Shown here one piece after another: positions 26,905-51,015 of a stretch of DNA of 64,000 bases. The position numbers and the translations under genes were made by a program. A model generated the notes under the pieces. That model saw nothing but the letters and a program-made list of their open reading frames with translations. It made no database searches and was not told the origin of the DNA. Numbering within the stretch: position 1 is the stretch's first letter; each line of letters begins with the position of its first letter. This DNA comes from Escherichia phage vB_VIPECOMC06. The stretch lies in the sequence record PQ416618.1. One strand, given 5' to 3'.

Positions 26905-26976
26905 GGCCCTGTAGCTCAATGGGAGAGCTGTCAGCTCATAACTGATAGGTAGCTGGATCGAAACCAGCCAGGGCCA
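26905..26976 (+). tRNA. tRNA with CAU anticodon (Met or lysidine-modified Ile)
   Basis: Cloverleaf readable by eye: acceptor GGCCCTG/CAGGGCC, D-arm GCTC-AATGGGA-GAGC, anticodon stem GTCAG/CTGAT with loop CTCATAA, T-arm GCTGG-ATCGAAA-CCAGC, discriminator A; no encoded CCA. Confidence 0.8.
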
Positions 26977-27017: not shown

Positions 27018-27686
27018 ATGTTCCATTACACTTATAAAATAACAAATAAAATTAATAATAAAATCTATATAGGCGCTCATTCTACCGAAAATTTAGATGA
27101 TGGATATATGGGTTCTGGTAAATTATTAAAAAGAGCCCAAGACAAGTATGGTATAGAAAATTTTAATAAAGAAATTTTAGAATTCTTTGACACTAAAGAG
27201 CAGATGTTTGAAGCCGAGAAAAATATCGTAAACGAAGAATTTTTGAATCGTTCTGACGTATATAATTTAAAACTTGGTGGCGAAGGTGGTTGGGACCATT
27301 TAAATACTTACGAATTTAATTATAAAAAGAAAGAAGCCTCTATTAAAGGAGCCAAAGCTTTTAAAGAGAGATTTGATTCTGATGAAGTGCTTCAAGAAAA
27401 ATATCGTAAAATGGGTTCAGAGAAATTAAAGCATCTGTGGACTTTACCTGAATACAGAGAAAAATTCTCTAGCACTAAGTCGTTTTTAAATAAAAATCAT
27501 ACTTCCGAAACTATTGCTAAAATGAAAGATACCCACGCCAGGAACAAACACCAACAAGGCGAGAAAAATTCCCAGTTTGGTACTATGTGGATTCATTCAT
27601 TAGAAGAAAAGAAATCTAAGAAAATTAAGAAAACCGATCCTATTCCGGAAGGTTGGATTAAAGGCTATAAACTAAAATTTAAGTGA
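27018..27686 (+). mobile_element. GIY-YIG homing endonuclease (SegB-like) immediately 3' of the tRNA
   Basis: 222 aa; N-terminal YTYKITNKINNKIYIGAHS GIY-YIG motif; C-terminal NUMOD-like basic repeats; T4 segB (~221 aa) also lies in the tRNA cluster. Confidence 0.75.
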
Positions 27687-28528: not shown

Positions 28529-28570
28529 ATCAATATCAACTACTGATACAGAAACAACTTGGAGAATAAA

Positions 28571-28834
28571 ATGGATAATTACGGTGAACTGTTCAACTTC
28601 TTTATGAAATGCGTTCCAGAAGATTTCGGACGTACAGTGAATGATATTAAAGTTATTGGACCTGAACACCCGGTGTATGAAACCTATGCAGTAATGGGTA
28701 ATGAAGATGGACAGTGGTATACAATTAAAGTTGTGATTAATATGTTCTCGGCTGAAGGCTACGCCAAATCGTCTACCAAAGTTTACCATGATAACGATTT
28801 TGATGCGGAAGATTATTTCAATAATATGAAATAA
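28571..28834 (+). CDS. Hypothetical protein
   Basis: 87 aa from MDNYGEL with GGAG SD. Confidence 0.45.
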   Translation: MDNYGELFNFFMKCVPEDFGRTVNDIKVIGPEHPVYETYAVMGNEDGQWYTIKVVINMFSAEGYAKSSTKVYHDNDFDAEDYFNNMK

Positions 28835-28864
28835 TTGTTTACATGGGCTCATGATTAAGATATT

Positions 28865-29197
28865 ATGAGCCCTATTAATGAGAAGAATGTTATGAGTCTT
28901 TATACTGAACTGAATAAAAAATCTGAAGAATCTGCTGAAACTATTTTTAAAAACGTGCAAAAGCGTATTTTAGAAAAGATGTATAACACTGCAGCTAAAG
29001 GTGAAAAATCTTGCCGGTTTCCGATGAGGTGTTCTTCTGATTTATGCGCAAATACTATTGAATGGCTGGAAAGCGAAGGTCTTACGGTAGAGAAAAATCC
29101 AACGACTTCTATTGACAGTGAATCATATATTAGTATTTCTTGGGATAAACCACGTATTAATGAAGGACACTACAAGTTGTTAAGTTGGAAAAATTAA
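28865..29197 (+). CDS. Hypothetical protein
   Basis: 110 aa ORF. Confidence 0.4.
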   Translation: MSPINEKNVMSLYTELNKKSEESAETIFKNVQKRILEKMYNTAAKGEKSCRFPMRCSSDLCANTIEWLESEGLTVEKNPTTSIDSESYISISWDKPRINEGHYKLLSWKN

Positions 29198-29266
29198 AAA
29201 TAAATGATGTACAAACGCCAAGGACGGTGTTACTATAGACTTATCAACTACAGAGGAGTAAACAAA

Positions 29267-29431
29267 ATGACTACTTTAATTATTTGGTTCGATGAAAATG
29301 AAGAAACATACTGTGTGAATATTGGTGAAAGTCCAATGCCTGAATTTGAATCCTCAGATAAAAACTCTGTTGTATCTTGGGCTGAAGGTTATAAAGCAGC
29401 TAAAGGTGACGTTGAAATAATTTACATCTAA
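29267..29431 (+). CDS. Hypothetical small protein
   Basis: 54 aa from MTTLIIWF with GAGGAG SD; ORF-track extension upstream lacks an SD. Confidence 0.35.
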   Translation: MTTLIIWFDENEETYCVNIGESPMPEFESSDKNSVVSWAEGYKAAKGDVEIIYI

Positions 29432-29478
29432 GTAAGTTTATGTTATAGTAATCACATCAAATCAAGAGGAGAAACAAA

Positions 29479-29706
29479 ATGGCTACAGTTAGTATTGATG
29501 TCGTTGATTATGAATACACCGAAGAAGTTATTCGCAACCGTCACCCTGAAGTTCGTATCGATTCGGTCCAAGATTCCAAGTTCTGGACAACTGAGCTTAA
29601 TCTGAGTGGTCCTTATGAAGCTGTTAAGAAGTTCATGGTTGAAGAATACTGTGAAGGCATGCACCCAGAAGACGCCGAGTTTTATGTCAATTTGATTAAA
29701 AAATAA
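29479..29706 (+). CDS. Hypothetical acidic protein
   Basis: 75 aa; AGAGGAG SD. Confidence 0.45.
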   Translation: MATVSIDVVDYEYTEEVIRNRHPEVRIDSVQDSKFWTTELNLSGPYEAVKKFMVEEYCEGMHPEDAEFYVNLIKK

Positions 29707-29741
29707 TTTACAAACTCTTGAGAGCAGAGTATAATGCTCTC
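29706..29741 (+). promoter_or_regulatory. Early promoter/stem-loop cassette; near-identical copy at 59314-59348
   Basis: tttacaaactcttgagagcagagTATAATgctctc; palindrome gagagca/tgctctc flanks the -10. Confidence 0.55.
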
Positions 29742-29776
29742 ATTGGATATTAAACCACCAATTGAAAGGTAATAAT

Positions 29777-30370
29777 ATGAACACACTGAAGAAACTTGTT
29801 GAATTCATCCGCACTAAACTGGGTACTGCTATGGCTAAAAATCTGACTGTCGAAGAACAGTATAACGCAGCTGCAGATAAGTTGATTACCCAAATCAAAG
29901 AACTAAAAACGGCTTCTGTTAAATCTATTAATGAAGAAAAACGTATTCGTGAACTTGTTATTGAAAAGAATAAGCAAGCCGCTTCTAAGGAACGTGAAAT
30001 TCGTAAGCTCTTGGCTGAAGGACAAGATGTTACCATGCATGCTAAGCTTGGTCTTCTGTATCGTCGAACTGCCGAACAACTTAATACAAAAGCCGACGGG
30101 TACGCTGCTATGCGAATTGAAATTGCTCGTAAGGTGGTTGAACTTGATGATGCTCGTCAGAACCTGGCAATCAAACTCGAATACATTCGTGAAACTCGAG
30201 CAGCCAATGCCCTTGGTATCTCTACGGCTGATGATGTAATTGAAATCGCTGCACTGACTAAGGTTGATATCGAAGACACTCTGACTCGTGTTGAAACGTT
30301 CAATGGCACTCCAACTGGTGTCGAAACAACTTCTGCTGATGTACAAGAATATATTAACTCTTTGAAATAA
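29777..30370 (+). CDS. Coiled-coil protein, possibly PspA/IM30-like
   Basis: 197 aa, long heptad-like helical sequence (…[28 protein letters not shown]…[20 protein letters not shown]); resemblance to PspA architecture is by eye only. Confidence 0.4.
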
Positions 30371-30378
30371 AATAATAC

Positions 30379-30400
30379 GGAGGACTCCGGTCCTCCTTTT
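30379..30400 (+). terminator. Rho-independent terminator
   Basis: ggaggac-tccg-gtcctcc hairpin followed by TTTT. Confidence 0.65.
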
Positions 30401-30419: not shown

Positions 30420-31016
30420 ATGCGAAACCAAAATAATGATATTGACTCAATGTTCGAAGAGTTCCGAAATAAGGTAAATCCACCTACGTCTTTAGTTGAT
30501 TCATTACGATATGTTGCAACTGGACGTAAATGGTACTGGTCGTCTTCTTATGAGACAACTGAATATGCAAATAACCGAAAATCTTTATTAGCCCCAGGTA
30601 TTATGATTCATGATATCGGAGCTATTGCTAAACTAGTTGCAGACCATGATATTAGATTCACTGATTTCGTTGCTCCTACGTGGTCTGTTTGTTGTTTAAA
30701 CACTGAATGGGACTATATCAGTGAACGCTCTGAAGATTATTATGGTTTTAGAGATAAGCTCTTAAGGTCTAACATGTTTTATATCGATACTGAAGTTCTA
30801 GTCGATAATAAAAAATATTACTTTACGTTAATCGTCGATTCTGAAACTATGTATGAAGGCAAGCCTTTGCTTAAAAGAGTTGATGCTTTAAGTGCTATTG
30901 ATGCGCTTTATGAAACCATGGTTGTTAGTCCTAATTTCACTAACAATTTAATCCTTGAGCAATTTATTATGGAATGTAGAGAATATGTCAAAGCCAACCC
31001 TGTACATGCCAAGTAA
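30420..31016 (+). CDS. Hypothetical protein ending in the FIMECR junction motif
   Basis: 198 aa from MRNQNNDID with AAAGGAG SD; C-terminus ...EQFIMECREYVKANPVHAK. Confidence 0.45.
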   Translation: MRNQNNDIDSMFEEFRNKVNPPTSLVDSLRYVATGRKWYWSSSYETTEYANNRKSLLAPGIMIHDIGAIAKLVADHDIRFTDFVAPTWSVCCLNTEWDYISERSEDYYGFRDKLLRSNMFYIDTEVLVDNKKYYFTLIVDSETMYEGKPLLKRVDALSAIDALYETMVVSPNFTNNLILEQFIMECREYVKANPVHAK

Positions 31017-31380
31017 GCCCTGGGCGTATGAATACAAACGTAAATTAATCCCAAATGAAGTACTATTTGGCCCTATTTTAGCTTTAGCATTTTTAATCTT
31101 TATGATTATAGGAGCTATTTTAGATTCCAATAAAGTTATATCATCTGATGCAGTGTTTTTACTTATTATAGCCGGGTCGTTTATTGTACCATTTTTATTA
31201 ATGCCTATTAACTGGGTGGGATATTGGTACCAAGGACGTCATCACAGAGCCCGATTAAGAGAATGGAAAGTTCAGTGCGCAAAAGCCCAAGCTCAGTATG
31301 ATGAAGCTGTTAAAAAGTATGAATATGAAGAAGCTATGGAATTCGTTAAGGAAATAAGATGCAAAAGCCTCAACTCTTAA
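30985..31380 (+). CDS. Small membrane protein (FVKEIRC-tail family)
   Basis: 131 aa from MSKPTLYMP; two hydrophobic segments; C-terminus ...MEFVKEIRCKSLNS. Confidence 0.5.
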   Translation: MSKPTLYMPSKPWAYEYKRKLIPNEVLFGPILALAFLIFMIIGAILDSNKVISSDAVFLLIIAGSFIVPFLLMPINWVGYWYQGRHHRARLREWKVQCAKAQAQYDEAVKKYEYEEAMEFVKEIRCKSLNS

Positions 31381-31718
31381 CCGTATGGCCTTCTCTTGGC
31401 GAGAACATTCTAATTTTTATTATGAGTATTGGCATGGGATTTGCCTTTGGATTAGTTGGATTTCTTATTGACGGCGTTGTGTTAGGATTTATAGGGAACA
31501 CTGGTGGATTCACAGACCAATGGCAGGACTTACGGTATACCCAAGCCTTTGCATCCATCGCATCCTTTTGTACTGTAGTCTATTTTTACTACGATTTTAT
31601 AAACCATAACAAGAAAAATAAAAAGGTTTACGCTTCTCAAATGATTAGTTATAATGAACTCCTAGCTAGACGTGAAAATGAAACAATAGAAAACTTTATT
31701 AAGGAATGTAGAAAATGA
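31359..31718 (+). CDS. Small membrane protein (FIKECR-tail family)
   Basis: 119 aa; hydrophobic segments; C-terminus ...ENFIKECRK; AAGGAA SD. Confidence 0.5.
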   Translation: MQKPQLLTVWPSLGENILIFIMSIGMGFAFGLVGFLIDGVVLGFIGNTGGFTDQWQDLRYTQAFASIASFCTVVYFYYDFINHNKKNKKVYASQMISYNELLARRENETIENFIKECRK

Positions 31719-32020
31719 GTAAGATTATTGAAATTAAAGTACCAGAGTTTAATGATGCCAAATCCGCTTCAGATGCAATTTATAAACTTCTGAATCAAGC
31801 TGAACGTATCGAAGAAGAAGCAACAAAGATCGCAGACCAATATGCTGTATCATTTTCTGTAGGTGATTACGGTAGCGGTCGTACTTATTATCCTAAGGGT
31901 GAAATTGTATCCCAGTGGATGAAAGATGAAATTGAAAATAATGGTGGTGATGTTAAACGTGAAGGTAATGGTTACGTTATTACTGAAGGTGCTTGGGTTT
32001 CGTCTTCTGCGATGTGCTAA
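31715..32020 (+). CDS. Hypothetical protein, member of a tandem paralog triplet (C-terminal W-V-S-S-S..C)
   Basis: 101 aa; C-terminus EGAWVSSSAMC; the next two ORFs share this tail. Confidence 0.5.
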   Translation: MSKIIEIKVPEFNDAKSASDAIYKLLNQAERIEEEATKIADQYAVSFSVGDYGSGRTYYPKGEIVSQWMKDEIENNGGDVKREGNGYVITEGAWVSSSAMC

Positions 32021-32029
32021 GGAATCATT

Positions 32030-32302
32030 ATGTCTAAAGAACAAACCGAACTGGCCGAAGCCGTAGAAAAAATCTATGCAGCTATTGAGGCTGCCAAAGA
32101 AATTGCTGATAAACAAAACACAACATTCGACTTGTATCCAGCTTATGGTATGGGTGGAACCTATCATTCACCTGGACAACTTAAAGCCGATCTTGAACGT
32201 TGTACAAAAAACGGCTATGCTGAATGGGCTGACGTTTACCAATACGACTACAACCTGAGCCTCGAAACCGGTGGTTGGATTGCATCTTCTCACACTTGCT
32301 AA
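32030..32302 (+). CDS. Hypothetical protein, paralog triplet member
   Basis: 90 aa; C-terminus GGWIASSHTC. Confidence 0.5.
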   Translation: MSKEQTELAEAVEKIYAAIEAAKEIADKQNTTFDLYPAYGMGGTYHSPGQLKADLERCTKNGYAEWADVYQYDYNLSLETGGWIASSHTC

Positions 32303-32311
32303 GGAAATCAT

Positions 32312-32509
32312 ATGTCTCGTGAATTAGATTGTGCTGTACGTACGGCAGTAGCTGCTCTGGAAAACCTGTTCCAAATTGCAACAGAAGAACGCGAAGAAGT
32401 TACATTATGGATTGAAGATAACGCAGGTCTGAATCTCCAGAATGCAATCTCGGTATCAAATAATAGTATTACTGTTCAAGGCTGGGTATCATCTAGTTAT
32501 TCTTGCTAA
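32312..32509 (+). CDS. Hypothetical protein, paralog triplet member
   Basis: 65 aa; C-terminus QGWVSSSYSC. Confidence 0.5.
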   Translation: MSRELDCAVRTAVAALENLFQIATEEREEVTLWIEDNAGLNLQNAISVSNNSITVQGWVSSSYSC

Positions 32510-32513
32510 AACA

Positions 32514-32543
32514 GTTTACAACAAGATAGGGCTATGTTATAGT
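32514..32543 (+). promoter_or_regulatory. Early promoter/stem-loop cassette
   Basis: gtttacaacaagatagggctatgttatagtagtcctatc (palindrome atagg.../...cctat over -10). Confidence 0.5.
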
Positions 32544-33808: not shown

Positions 33809-33838
33809 GTTTACAACATGATAGGACTATGTTATAGT
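33809..33838 (+). promoter_or_regulatory. Early promoter/stem-loop cassette
   Basis: gtttacaacatgataggactatgttatagtagtcctat. Confidence 0.5.
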
Positions 33839-33866: not shown

Positions 33867-34172
33867 ATGAAATTAGGCGAAACCAACCGAATTGGTCTTT
33901 TAACAATATTTGCATCACCTTTTTACGCAGCCCTTTCTGTTGCAGTATTACAAAAGGCTTACGATATGGATGGTGTTCCTGGTTTTGTATTCTTATCGCC
34001 GTTTTTGCTATTCGTTGGAGCATTGTTATTATATGCCACGACTAGTTTCGACCATAACGTCTGGGTCAATTATAAATGTAAATTGTCTGAAGAAGAACAC
34101 GCGGAAGCTCGTAAAAAAGCTATTGAATCTACTAATCTAGAAAATTTCATTAAAGAATGTCGAGGAAAATAA
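33867..34172 (+). CDS. Small membrane protein (FIKECR-tail family)
   Basis: 101 aa; two hydrophobic segments; C-terminus ...LENFIKECRGK. Confidence 0.5.
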   Translation: MKLGETNRIGLLTIFASPFYAALSVAVLQKAYDMDGVPGFVFLSPFLLFVGALLLYATTSFDHNVWVNYKCKLSEEEHAEARKKAIESTNLENFIKECRGK

Positions 34173-34243: not shown

Positions 34244-34642
34244 GTGAAACATATTTGCCAAGAATTTAAAATCGACCAGCCAGCAGGTATTATCGTGAAC
34301 AGATACATTAATGGATATCAACCTATCGATGAAGTAATACGAACAACCCAAGCTGAGCTTGAAAAGTTTTTCAATAAGTGCCAATGGATAACAGGATGGA
34401 TTATATTTGTACCATCGGTATGGTTTTTTAGTACTAAAGTAAGTGCCTTTGCCGTACTAGATATTATCGCCATCTTATTAGCATCTATTATCATAAGTGT
34501 TGTTGGTGGCATCATTGGCGGCGGTACCGCCGCCATCATTATTAATCTTATTAAAAGTAGTTTACAAGAACGTAAAGACAAGATAAAAGCCAAGAATAAT
34601 GAAGTTGAACGTTTTATTACCGAATGCAGGAATTTGAGATGA
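34244..34642 (+). CDS. Small membrane protein (FITECR-tail family), non-ATG (GTG) start
   Basis: 132 aa; no in-frame ATG in the N-terminal two-thirds and no clear SD; hydrophobic core with GG-rich segment; C-terminus ...ERFITECRNLR. Confidence 0.35.
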   Translation: MKHICQEFKIDQPAGIIVNRYINGYQPIDEVIRTTQAELEKFFNKCQWITGWIIFVPSVWFFSTKVSAFAVLDIIAILLASIIISVVGGIIGGGTAAIIINLIKSSLQERKDKIKAKNNEVERFITECRNLR

Positions 34643-45542: not shown

Positions 45543-46528
45543 TGAAAACAATTATGAAAGGCTACTTTGGTAGCCACCTTTATGGAACGTCTACTCCTGA
45601 ATCTGACGTCGATTTTAAAGAAATTTATGTCCCTCACGCTCGTGATATCTTGACCGGTAACGTTAAAGAACACATGAGCAAGAACACGAATAACACATCT
45701 TCTAAGAACACAAAAGACGACGTGGACCATGAGTTGTATAGTCTCAAATATTTCTTTAAACTAGCTGCAGACGGTGAAACCGTCGCATTAGATATGCTTC
45801 ACACTCCACAAAGTCTAGTAGTTAAATCTGATTTGCCTGATGTATGGAAGTATATTCAAGATAACAGGTCTCGTTTCTATACTACTAACATGAAATCTTA
45901 TTTAGGGTATGTCCGTAAGCAAGCTTCTAAATATGGTGTCAAGGGTTCTCGACTGGCTGTTCTTCGTCAAGCCCTTAAACGTTCTAATGAATGGGGACAA
46001 TACTTTGATAATGGTGCAGTAATTCGTTTATCACATATGAAGAATGTTCTGCCTATAGGTGAATTTGCTTCATGGGTTGAAACAGAAAACGAGAAAACAG
46101 GTAAGCAAACATTCTATAATCTGTTAGACCGTAAATTCCAAGACACATTAACCAATAAAGAGTTCAATGCCATCCTGGTTAAACTGGAAGAGAACTATGG
46201 TGAACGTGCTCGTAAGGCAGAAGCTAACGAAGGTATTGACTGGAAAGCATTGAGTCATGCATGTCGTGGTGGACTTCAATTATTGGAAATTTACAAAACC
46301 GGCGACCTGGTTTACCCACTTCAGGATGCTCCATTTATTCTCGATGTTAAGCTTGGTAAACATACTTTTAAAACTGTACAAGAATTCCTAGAAGATATCG
46401 TTGACCAAGTTGAACATGCGTCAGAACAAGCTGCCAAGAACGGTATGCAACAAAAAGTAGATATGAGTTTCTGGGATGACTTCCTTGAACAGGTCTATCT
46501 CGAAAATCATAATTCTTACTATAAATAA
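45539..46528 (+). CDS. Polymerase-beta-superfamily nucleotidyltransferase
   Basis: 329 aa; N-terminal KGYFGSHLYGTSTPESDVDF fits the hG[GS]x(9-13)Dh[DE]h NTase signature (GS...SDVD); downstream acidic residue in DMLH. Confidence 0.6.
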   Translation: MMKTIMKGYFGSHLYGTSTPESDVDFKEIYVPHARDILTGNVKEHMSKNTNNTSSKNTKDDVDHELYSLKYFFKLAADGETVALDMLHTPQSLVVKSDLPDVWKYIQDNRSRFYTTNMKSYLGYVRKQASKYGVKGSRLAVLRQALKRSNEWGQYFDNGAVIRLSHMKNVLPIGEFASWVETENEKTGKQTFYNLLDRKFQDTLTNKEFNAILVKLEENYGERARKAEANEGIDWKALSHACRGGLQLLEIYKTGDLVYPLQDAPFILDVKLGKHTFKTVQEFLEDIVDQVEHASEQAAKNGMQQKVDMSFWDDFLEQVYLENHNSYYK

Positions 46529-49993: not shown

Positions 49994-50022
49994 TGTACAA
50001 CCAAGGATGGTTGGAGTATAAT
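49993..50022 (+). promoter_or_regulatory. Early promoter/stem-loop cassette (ccaaggatggttgg palindrome, TATAAT -10)
   Basis: atgtacaaccaaggatggttggagTATAAT; near-identical copy at 50986-51015. Confidence 0.5.
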
Positions 50023-50985: not shown

Positions 50986-51015
50986 GTTTACAACCAAGGA
51001 TGGTTGGAGTATAAT
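50986..51015 (+). promoter_or_regulatory. Early promoter/stem-loop cassette (copy of the 49993 element)
   Basis: gtttacaaccaaggatggttggagTATAAT. Confidence 0.55.

Follow-up and report, generated by a model that had tools for sequence, protein, structure and literature searches.

The gene at positions 29777-30370 on the plus strand of a 64,000-nucleotide stretch of Escherichia phage vB_VIPECOMC06 (sequence record PQ416618.1; the whole stretch is called the window below) is the Mosigvirus orthologue of phage T4 e.6. Its 197-residue product very probably belongs, as a genuine though highly diverged member, to PspA/IM30/Vipp1, the family that forms the bacterial branch of the ESCRT-III superfamily. 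This homology is accepted because the comparisons of profiles with structures and of profiles with profiles, the predicted fold, and a Pfam link through remote family members all agree. By analogy with the bacterial proteins, it is also somewhat probable that the phage uses e.6 as its own PspA-type protein, which would bind to the inner membrane, polymerise, and protect or remodel the membrane early in infection.

The genome is that of a T4-like phage of the genus Mosigvirus, and the 1.4 kb around e.6 share 97-98% identity with Shigella phage phi25-307, Escherichia phages JS09 and HX01, and others. The open reading frame (ORF) of 197 codons that the first-pass annotation placed at 29777-30370 was confirmed. 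It begins with ATG at 29777 and ends with TAA at 30368-30370. A mechanical ORF list starts it at TTG 29762; all homologues begin with MNTLKK or a similar sequence, in agreement with the ATG. The protein is 88% identical to T4 e.6 (T4p129, annotated as a 22.0-kDa "conserved hypothetical protein") over its full length of 197 aa, and residues 1-197 match positions 1-199 of 200 in PHROG 1203 ("unknown function") at E 1.5e-86. The gene was found by tblastn in 1101 of 50,697 phage records, with hosts including Escherichia, Klebsiella, Shigella, Aeromonas, Enterobacter, Yersinia, and others, and the family also occurs in phages of Erwinia. Remoter members are carried by Ackermannviridae (Vi01, Ag3, Klebsiella phage Zahir). 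Among 1.84 billion representative proteins, a HMMER profile recovered only 45 representatives of the e.6 family, all of them collinear and about 195-209 aa long.

With e.6 as a single sequence, Pfam scans gave only weak generic coiled-coil matches, and phmmer against the sequences of the PDB returned nothing. Two profiles were compared with the known families, one built from close e.6 relatives (A1) and one from 42 e.6-family sequences reaching down to 17% identity (A2). With A1, Vipp1 was among the best matches in the PDB at a non-significant E of about 1-2, in the register 6-139 on 6-141. With A2, the best eight matches of an hmmsearch against the PDB sequences were all Vipp1 or PspA (E 4.1e-5 to 1.7e-3), and the alignment was collinear, with query residues 1-146 on chain residues 1-147. 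The comparison of profiles by hhalign gave a probability of 93.2% for A2 against a set of PspA plus Vipp1, and of 94.0% (score 53.4, alignment from residue 1 of both) against a diverse PspA/Vipp1 set. The latter was widened by eight IMG/VR contigs, which contribute six distinct PspA sequences (24-33% identical to E. coli PspA), and it includes Synechocystis Vipp1; searches with E. coli PspA (word-indexed and of genome contigs) had given only Enterobacterales PspA at 78% identity or above. In global mode, the probability was 95.5%, and RVETF was paired with ARFESFE and YINSLK with LAQLKAK, that part with low confidence.

Coiled-coil proteins can resemble one another by composition, and a generic artefact of this kind was considered and rejected, as the controls score far below the observed match. 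Reversed alignments gave probabilities of 1-3%, and PspA alignments shuffled in 7- and 14-column blocks gave scores averaging 15.1±2.2 and 18.0±2.5 and never above 24, against the 53 observed. The Pfam scan of the 42 family members offers a further route. Five of them match PF04012 (PspA_IM30), and two, from phages of the Ackermannviridae type, clear its gathering threshold of 33.9 bits. P0183 reaches 39.0 bits (E 8.9e-10), its residues 6-146 aligning with positions 2-143 of the profile, and P0177 reaches 35.1 bits. Both belong to the e.6 family by a narrow e.6 profile (E 5e-17 and 3e-20, respectively) and retain more of the PspA signature (F..EAN....LDKLTDTEK). The PspA/IM30-like character proposed by the first-pass annotation is thus borne out by the profile matches, by the structural matches to Vipp1 described below, and by these two relatives. 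The same annotation had named the lack of a significant profile match to the PspA/ESCRT-III superfamily as the outcome that would speak against it; a significant match was found by independent routes.

The AlphaFold2 (AF2) model has helices at residues 2-22, 25-80, 86-145, 166-175, and 186-196, an order that is the PspA layout, and the earlier description of the protein as almost entirely helical holds for this five-helix model. The mean predicted local distance difference test score (pLDDT) is 78; it is mostly 87-96 over residues 31-130 and drops to 80 and 69 as the hairpin nears its 3' end. When the model was compared with the PDB by Foldseek, ranks 1 to 8 were all Vipp1 (E 9e-4 to 2e-2), and next came CdvB2, an ESCRT-III protein of archaea; the match to 6zvs_A has a root-mean-square deviation of 2.9 A over 121 columns. 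Among viral models, a Snf7 protein and a "PspA/IM30 family protein" came next after the e.6 relatives. The N-terminal helix, which corresponds to the α-0 membrane anchor of PspA and Vipp1, has a hydrophobic moment of 0.43, where E. coli PspA has 0.42, and is cationic, with a net charge of +3 (family mean +2.8); its amphipathic and cationic character holds across the family. This helix supports the assignment to the PspA superfamily. In the model, the helices at 166-175 and 186-196 may be equivalent to α-4 and α-5 of PspA.

Several observations weigh against a PspA-type protein that acts at the membrane. The window protein has no match to PF04012 in the Pfam scan even at E<=10, and a HMMER profile of close e.6 relatives found no canonical PspA and no bridging sequence among 1.8 billion proteins. 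The KAEDPEK motif, which links α-0 and α-1 in PspA, is replaced by AKNLTVEEQ, with only K21 and E26 lining up, and remote family members carry DKLTDTEK at this position. The C-terminal third can be aligned in global mode only and with low confidence. The template-modelling scores (TM-scores) are only 0.45-0.55 over the full length, and a long helical hairpin is a shape that easily gives spurious matches. None of the known Psp partners (PspB, PspC, PspF, LiaI) has a gene in the neighbourhood. Defence by RexAB acts through membrane depolarisation, and T4 e.6 is not among the genes depleted with RexAB in the available part of the HIDEN-SEQ text.

The closest bacterial comparison is with PspA/IM30/Vipp1 itself, as in E. 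coli PspA and Synechocystis Vipp1. The order of α-0, the α-1/α-2+3 hairpin, and the short C-terminal helices is shared, the proteins are collinear from residue 1 and of similar size (197 aa in e.6 and about 220 aa in PspA/Vipp1), and the hairpin tip G-x-(D/E) with the following L/A-rich start of α-2 lines up. In contrast, the identity is about 10-12% (about 10% with E. coli PspA), KAEDPEK is lacking, and the C-terminal part is shorter and poorly alignable. Unlike its bacterial counterparts, e.6 is carried by a virulent phage, stands behind an early promoter, and has no neighbours of the PspBC, PspF, or LiaI type. ESCRT-III, Snf7, and CdvB proteins share the helical-hairpin core, and CdvB2 filaments and giant-virus Snf7 rank just below the Vipp1 matches. 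Nevertheless, the matches of e.6 to this branch are weaker than those to Vipp1, and neither a MIM-type tail nor a Vps4-like ATPase partner was identified.

Two groups of phage proteins are also related to e.6. The e.6-like proteins of Ackermannviridae have the same length and helix layout, belong to the same HMMER family (E 5e-17), and are followed by a GC-rich hairpin. P0183 is 77-85% identical to the proteins of Klebsiella phage Zahir and of the Salmonella phages Se-S and GOT, and 046c of Salmonella phage Vi01 and the "e.6" of Shigella phage Ag3 were found at 23-24% identity with a remoter query, P0197. They differ from e.6 in that more of the PspA signature is kept and the PF04012 threshold is cleared, while no promoter of their own was seen and the downstream genes are different and lack the FIxECR tail described below. 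The second group comprises canonical pspA genes, such as that of the "PspA/IM30 family protein" of Acinetobacter phage ME3 and those on eight IMG/VR contigs; pspA-like genes have also been described in gut "Jug" jumbo phages (PMC12880540). They are phage-encoded and of the same superfamily, but, in contrast to e.6, they are 24-33% identical to E. coli PspA and have KAEDPEK intact. The canonical pspA genes of large phages were probably acquired from hosts, whereas e.6 represents an old lineage, specific to phages and far more diverged, whose conservation extends across Straboviridae. The IMG/VR contigs L086-L091 (77-360 kb) encode canonical PspA with KAEDPEK intact and 24-31% identity to E. coli PspA; therefore, phage-borne PspA exists in at least two unrelated forms, recent canonical copies and the old e.6 lineage.

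Features of the e.6 locus in the window, with the basis for each
Feature	Position	Strand	Basis or remark
A/T-rich stretch ATTTGATTAAAAAATAA	29690-29706	+	just upstream of -35; overlaps end of frd.3-like gene
Early sigma-70-type promoter, predicted	29707-29735	+	TTTACA 29707-29712, 17 nt, TATAAT 29730-29735
8-bp inverted repeat TGAGAGCA / TGCTCTCA	29719-29742	.	arms 29719-29726 and 29735-29742; brackets -10 hexamer
Ribosome-binding site GAAAGG	29764-29769	+	7 nt ahead of e.6 ATG; read from sequence
e.6 orthologue, coding sequence of a divergent PspA/IM30-superfamily protein	29777-30370	+	197 aa plus stop; T4 e.6 identity, PHROG 1203, PspA/Vipp1 homology
Residues 2-22, N-terminal amphipathic cationic helix, like PspA/Vipp1 α-0 membrane anchor	29780-29842	+	AF2; aligned to PspA 1-22
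Residues 25-145, helical hairpin, like ESCRT-III α-1/α-2+3 core	29849-30211	+	helix 25-80, tip LAEGQDV, helix 86-145
Residues 166-196, two short C-terminal helices	30272-30364	+	AF2 166-175 and 186-196, after low-confidence linker
GC-rich hairpin GGAGGAC-TCCG-GTCCTCC plus TTTT, between e.6 and e.5; intrinsic terminator or attenuator	30379-30400	+	7-bp stem, 30379-30396
e.5 orthologue, 198 aa, soluble	30420-31016	+	PHROG 2607; 47% identical to T4 e.5; without own promoter
e.4 orthologue, 131 aa, predicted two-helix membrane protein	30985-31380	+	PHROG 2604; cytoplasmic tail ends EFVKEIRCKS
e.3 orthologue, 119 aa, predicted membrane protein	31359-31718	+	PHROG 2330; ends ENFIKECRK

Transcription of the gene takes place in the first minutes of infection and starts at a predicted early promoter of the sigma-70 type. 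This site has 11 of 12 matches to the consensus, is the best in the 4.5-kb region scanned, and comes directly after the upstream gene's stop codon and a stretch rich in A/T that, judged by its letters, looks like an UP element. Early promoters of the T4 type are described as having AT-rich upstream regions (PMC2839356). Transcription would begin near 29742. In the window, the early-promoter pattern occurs 15 times, 12 of them on the plus strand, against 1.65 expected (a ninefold enrichment). A promoter is found at the equivalent place in T4, Aeromonas phage 65, and Slopekvirus KLB27, and none was found there ahead of e.6 in Vi01 and CfP1.

The first-pass annotation described a stem-loop promoter cassette at 29706. 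The promoter and the 8-bp inverted repeat that brackets its -10 hexamer are real, and the 81-nt region folds at -17.1 kcal/mol (z = -3.5); the significance of a cassette did not hold up, as the repeat is not conserved outside Mosigviruses. It is identical in two other Mosigviruses and absent in T4, Aeromonas phage 65, KLB27, Vi01, and CfP1 (z from +0.9 to -1.1). In addition, the hairpin could not form in the e.6 mRNA because a transcript from this promoter would begin at or after its 3' arm. The repeat is lineage-specific, and its significance is doubtful. Near-identical early-promoter copies lie at 49994-50022 and 50987-51015, and at 32515-32543 and 33810-33838, and their 17-nt spacers hold short inverted repeats (CAACCA-AGGA-TGGTTG; ATAGGGCTAT). 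Taken with the repeat at 29719-29742, these copies suggest that the early promoters of vB_VIPECOMC06 commonly have palindromic spacers.

A PeSL cassette was also considered for this arrangement and rejected on the published definition (PMC2839356) and the comparison of six lineages. In such cassettes, a terminator stem-loop lies directly upstream of an early promoter, and genes are swapped in a hyperplastic region (PMC2839356, PMC4122927). The e.6 locus shares with them the strong sigma-70-like early promoter with its AT-rich upstream part and the location in a hyperplastic gene-swapping region. However, its inverted repeat brackets the -10 hexamer, and no stem-loop terminator stands directly upstream of the promoter; there is no room for one because the -35 hexamer starts right after the upstream stop codon. 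The hairpin after e.6, in turn, has no promoter behind it.

That hairpin is the second regulatory element of the locus. It folds at -14.4 kcal/mol and is followed by a run of only four T (in T4, TATTACTT). A hairpin is kept at this position in all six lineages compared, including T4, phage 65, KLB27, Vi01, and CfP1, with a different stem sequence in each. No promoter-like site was found between it and e.5, which starts 20 nt further on, and e.5, e.4, and e.3 have no promoter of their own. In T4, e.6 gives an early RNA, with the protein detected and classed as middle, and e.5 and e.4 are classed as early RNAs (PMC9697503 supplement). The lack of a promoter-like site before e.5, together with these early RNAs, implies read-through. 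For this reason, and in view of the short T-run, the hairpin probably attenuates transcription rather than terminating it. The "strong terminator" of the first-pass annotation at 30379 is therefore a real hairpin whose strength was overstated, and the idea of a strong, autonomous terminator was dropped in favour of an attenuator. Likewise, the unit has its own promoter and its hairpin, but calling it an autonomous transcription unit went too far, since e.5, e.4, and e.3 would depend on read-through. On this evidence, e.6 would come first in an e.6-e.5-e.4-e.3 unit, with the highest expression of the four, and would not be fully autonomous.

The genes behind e.6 are less conserved than e.6 itself. 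Identity to T4 is 88% for e.6 and 47%, 50%, and 35% for e.5, e.4, and e.3, respectively, so that, by these identities, e.6 evolves far more slowly than the genes next to it. For T4 e.4, the annotation is that of a predicted membrane protein (PMC11879866 supplement). The neighbourhood varies among phages. In T4 and Mosigvirus, e.6 lies between e and segB and is followed, after the hairpin, by e.5; in Aeromonas phage 65, it lies after gene 31 and is followed, after the hairpin, by d1 and d2, which are e.5-like; in Slopekvirus and Pseudotevenvirus, it lies between nrdD and nrdG and is followed by KLB_d1 or CfP1 gp099. Thus, at each of three different genome positions, e.6 is kept together with the hairpin and an e.5-like gene. 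The link among the downstream genes is weak but consistent: e.5 and the two phage-65 genes match PHROG 13418 at E of about 1e-4 (a weak link), KLB_d1 matches T4 e.5 by BLAST at E 0.002, and a shallow e.5 hidden Markov model gave no significant match to the genes that lie downstream in other phages. The neighbours of e.6 (frd.3-like, e.5, e.4, e.3) have no Psp-related Pfam domain. The AF2 model of e.5 is poor (pLDDT 63), and its seven best Foldseek matches were small alarmone synthetases (RelP/RelQ) that are not significant (probability <=0.21, TM-score about 0.19). An e.5 profile found nothing in the PDB. Homologues of e.5 carry the precomputed Pfam tag PF26876; a local Pfam scan of the e.5 protein in the window gave no such match.

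Several of these proteins end alike. The motif F-[IV]-x-E-C-[RK] (e.g., ENFIKECRK) lies no more than 11 aa from the C-terminus of e.5, of e.3, and of two other small membrane proteins (33867-34172 and 34244-34642), and e.4 carries a variant. In its strict form, it occurs in four plus-strand ORFs, none of them more than 4.3 kb downstream of e.6; the window has just one other six-frame match, at 45751, and that one spans a stop codon. The motif is also found in the genes after e.6 in other phages (L092 4128-5427, L093 4124-5071, L095 3597-4577), and the downstream genes of Vi01 lack it. This tail may be a docking peptide. Its coding sequence sometimes carries the ATG of the next gene (GAATGY). 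A different shared ending, G-x-W-(V/I)-(S/A)-S-S-x-x-C, is found in three small tandem ORFs at 31715-32020, 32030-32302, and 32312-32509, which look like a locally amplified family of paralogues; the first of them matches the C-terminal part of PHROG 899.

The region upstream of e.6 is an example of modular gene shuffling. In T4, the gene order is e.8, e.7, e.6 (L003 5907-6624), whereas here the region 28559-29706 differs: an e.8 homologue (28559-28834) is followed by three unrelated small ORFs and then by e.6, so that e.7 is replaced. The last of the three (29479-29706) is a homologue of frd.3 (PF05798), which lies elsewhere in the T4 genome. Promoter-like sites at 28838 and 29421 precede the first and third replacement ORFs, and the site at 29707 serves e.6. 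Further upstream, a single tRNA-Met(CAT) at 26905-26976 is followed by a GIY-YIG-type homing-endonuclease-like ORF of 222 aa (27018-27686), which holds the position of SegB in T4; related phages carry more tRNAs here.

What e.6 does in the infected cell has to be judged from its fold, its anchor helix, its early timing, its strong conservation, and its dispensability in the laboratory, and it is because of these that a role at the membrane is favoured. The first-pass annotation had suggested that such a protein could stabilise the inner membrane during infection or lysis inhibition. Knock-down of T4 e.6, e.5, e.4, or e.3 by CRISPRi-ART had no fitness cost in the laboratory, and all four genes are listed as unknown (PMC11879866 supplement). 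The role of e.6 in T4 would thus be accessory. The proposed route consists of steps that are each given close to, if not quite, an even chance of holding. The cationic amphipathic N-terminal helix would dock e.6 on the cytoplasmic face of the host inner membrane, and the long helical hairpin would polymerise as in PspA and Vipp1. The polymer could then protect, reseal, or remodel the membrane and so keep the proton-motive force for phage production. A phage copy may be needed because the host psp operon can no longer be induced. This operon is dependent on sigma-54 and PspF, and it would not be inducible because T4-type phages shut off host transcription, which is established T4 biology. As the hairpin would pass only part of the transcription, much e.6 and less e.5, e.4, and e.3 might be made. 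The e.5-like protein that always follows e.6, together with e.4 and e.3, would then be candidates for the part of partner or anchor, on the model of PspB/C and LiaI. The comparison with the PspA-PspB/C and LiaH-LiaI modules goes some way: a PspA-type gene stands first and is followed by genes for small inner-membrane proteins (e.4 and e.3), and the hairpin suggests a similar architecture of differential expression. However, no homology of e.4 or e.3 to PspB, PspC, or LiaI was detected (Pfam gave no match), and the adjacent soluble e.5-like partner has no counterpart in Psp systems.

The conserved pairing could also mean that e.6 acts at defined places. A phage-specific remodelling of the ESCRT-III type in place of general protection, in which e.5, e.4, and e.3 recruit e.6, perhaps through the F-[IV]-x-E-C-[RK] tail, is unlikely as a whole; the same grade applies to the targets that come into question, namely the DNA-injection pore, superinfection exclusion, or a membrane-bound site of replication or assembly. 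The maintenance of e.6 with an e.5-like gene at three genomic locations, the clustering of the tail motif downstream of e.6 here and in other phages, and structural matches that include remodelling proteins such as Vipp1 and CdvB2 filaments all fit such a role. Yet the downstream genes of Vi01 do without the tail, the poor e.5 model gives no significant structural match, and the costless knock-down of all four genes argues against an obligatory step of infection. An extended form of the proposal is rather unlikely. It would be a self-contained phage module resembling Psp, with an ESCRT-III-type polymer of e.6 made in excess from the first cistron, an obligatory soluble e.5-like partner, small inner-membrane proteins, and a docking tag in the F-[IV]-x-E-C-[RK] tail that recruits the polymer to defined sites, where it would reseal or remodel the membrane after DNA injection or under membrane-targeting defences. 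Dispensability in laboratory E. coli combined with strong conservation is the usual profile of an anti-defence gene, and with early expression and a location in a hyperplastic region rich in accessory genes, it could indicate that e.6 neutralises abortive-infection effectors that permeabilise or depolarise the inner membrane, and matters only in hosts that have them. This explanation, which is drawn purely from the fold, is quite unlikely; in the available part of the HIDEN-SEQ text, e.6 is not mentioned among the T4 genes that become conditionally essential with RexAB, CBASS, or DarTG.

It is very unlikely that e.6 is a molecular mimic that sequesters PspF, PspB, or PspC, or co-polymerises with host PspA and poisons it, thereby weakening the envelope, for example in the timing of lysis. 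The best-aligned part of e.6 (α-0 to α-3) does correspond to the region with which PspA binds PspF and the membrane. Nevertheless, an identity of about 10% with E. coli PspA, the loss of the conserved PspA surface motifs, and a sequence that does not track host PspA although the family occurs in phages of Aeromonas, Erwinia, and other hosts all speak against mimicry, and little would be gained from repressing psp when host transcription is shut off anyway. Finally, a generic coiled coil unrelated to PspA, serving as a scaffold, virion, or host-range factor, is effectively excluded. Some GenBank and UniRef records are labelled "host specificity protein" or "tail completion protein", labels that were not supported by any search, and the single-sequence Pfam matches are of the generic coiled-coil kind. 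Against this stand the reversed and block-shuffled controls, which rule out an artefact of composition or heptads, the two family members above the PF04012 threshold, an early promoter and early RNA class that do not suit a virion protein, and the absence of similarity to tail or fibre proteins in any search.

No paper that assigns e.6 to PspA and no functional study of e.6 was found in the literature, and the T4 annotation tables of 2022 and 2025 (PMC9697503 and PMC11879866 supplements) give its function as unknown. Canonical pspA in large phages has been noted before, and the Ackermannviridae homologues would already be flagged by Pfam. Therefore, e.6 is a divergent addition to a known family and not a new kind of system.

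PspA owes its name, "phage shock protein", to its induction by a protein of filamentous phages, and the best-studied family of virulent phages is now seen to carry its own, very divergent copy. Through this finding, a conserved "hypothetical" early gene, carried by over 1,100 sequenced phage genomes, becomes a hypothesis that can be tested in a tractable model, and the PspA/Vipp1/ESCRT-III superfamily gains an old viral branch. Bacterial Psp systems hold nothing that corresponds to the candidate partners, namely e.5 and the small membrane proteins that end in the FIKECR tail. If the favoured role at the membrane is true, a lytic phage that has shut off host expression would supply its own machinery for membrane maintenance or its own ESCRT-III-like machinery.

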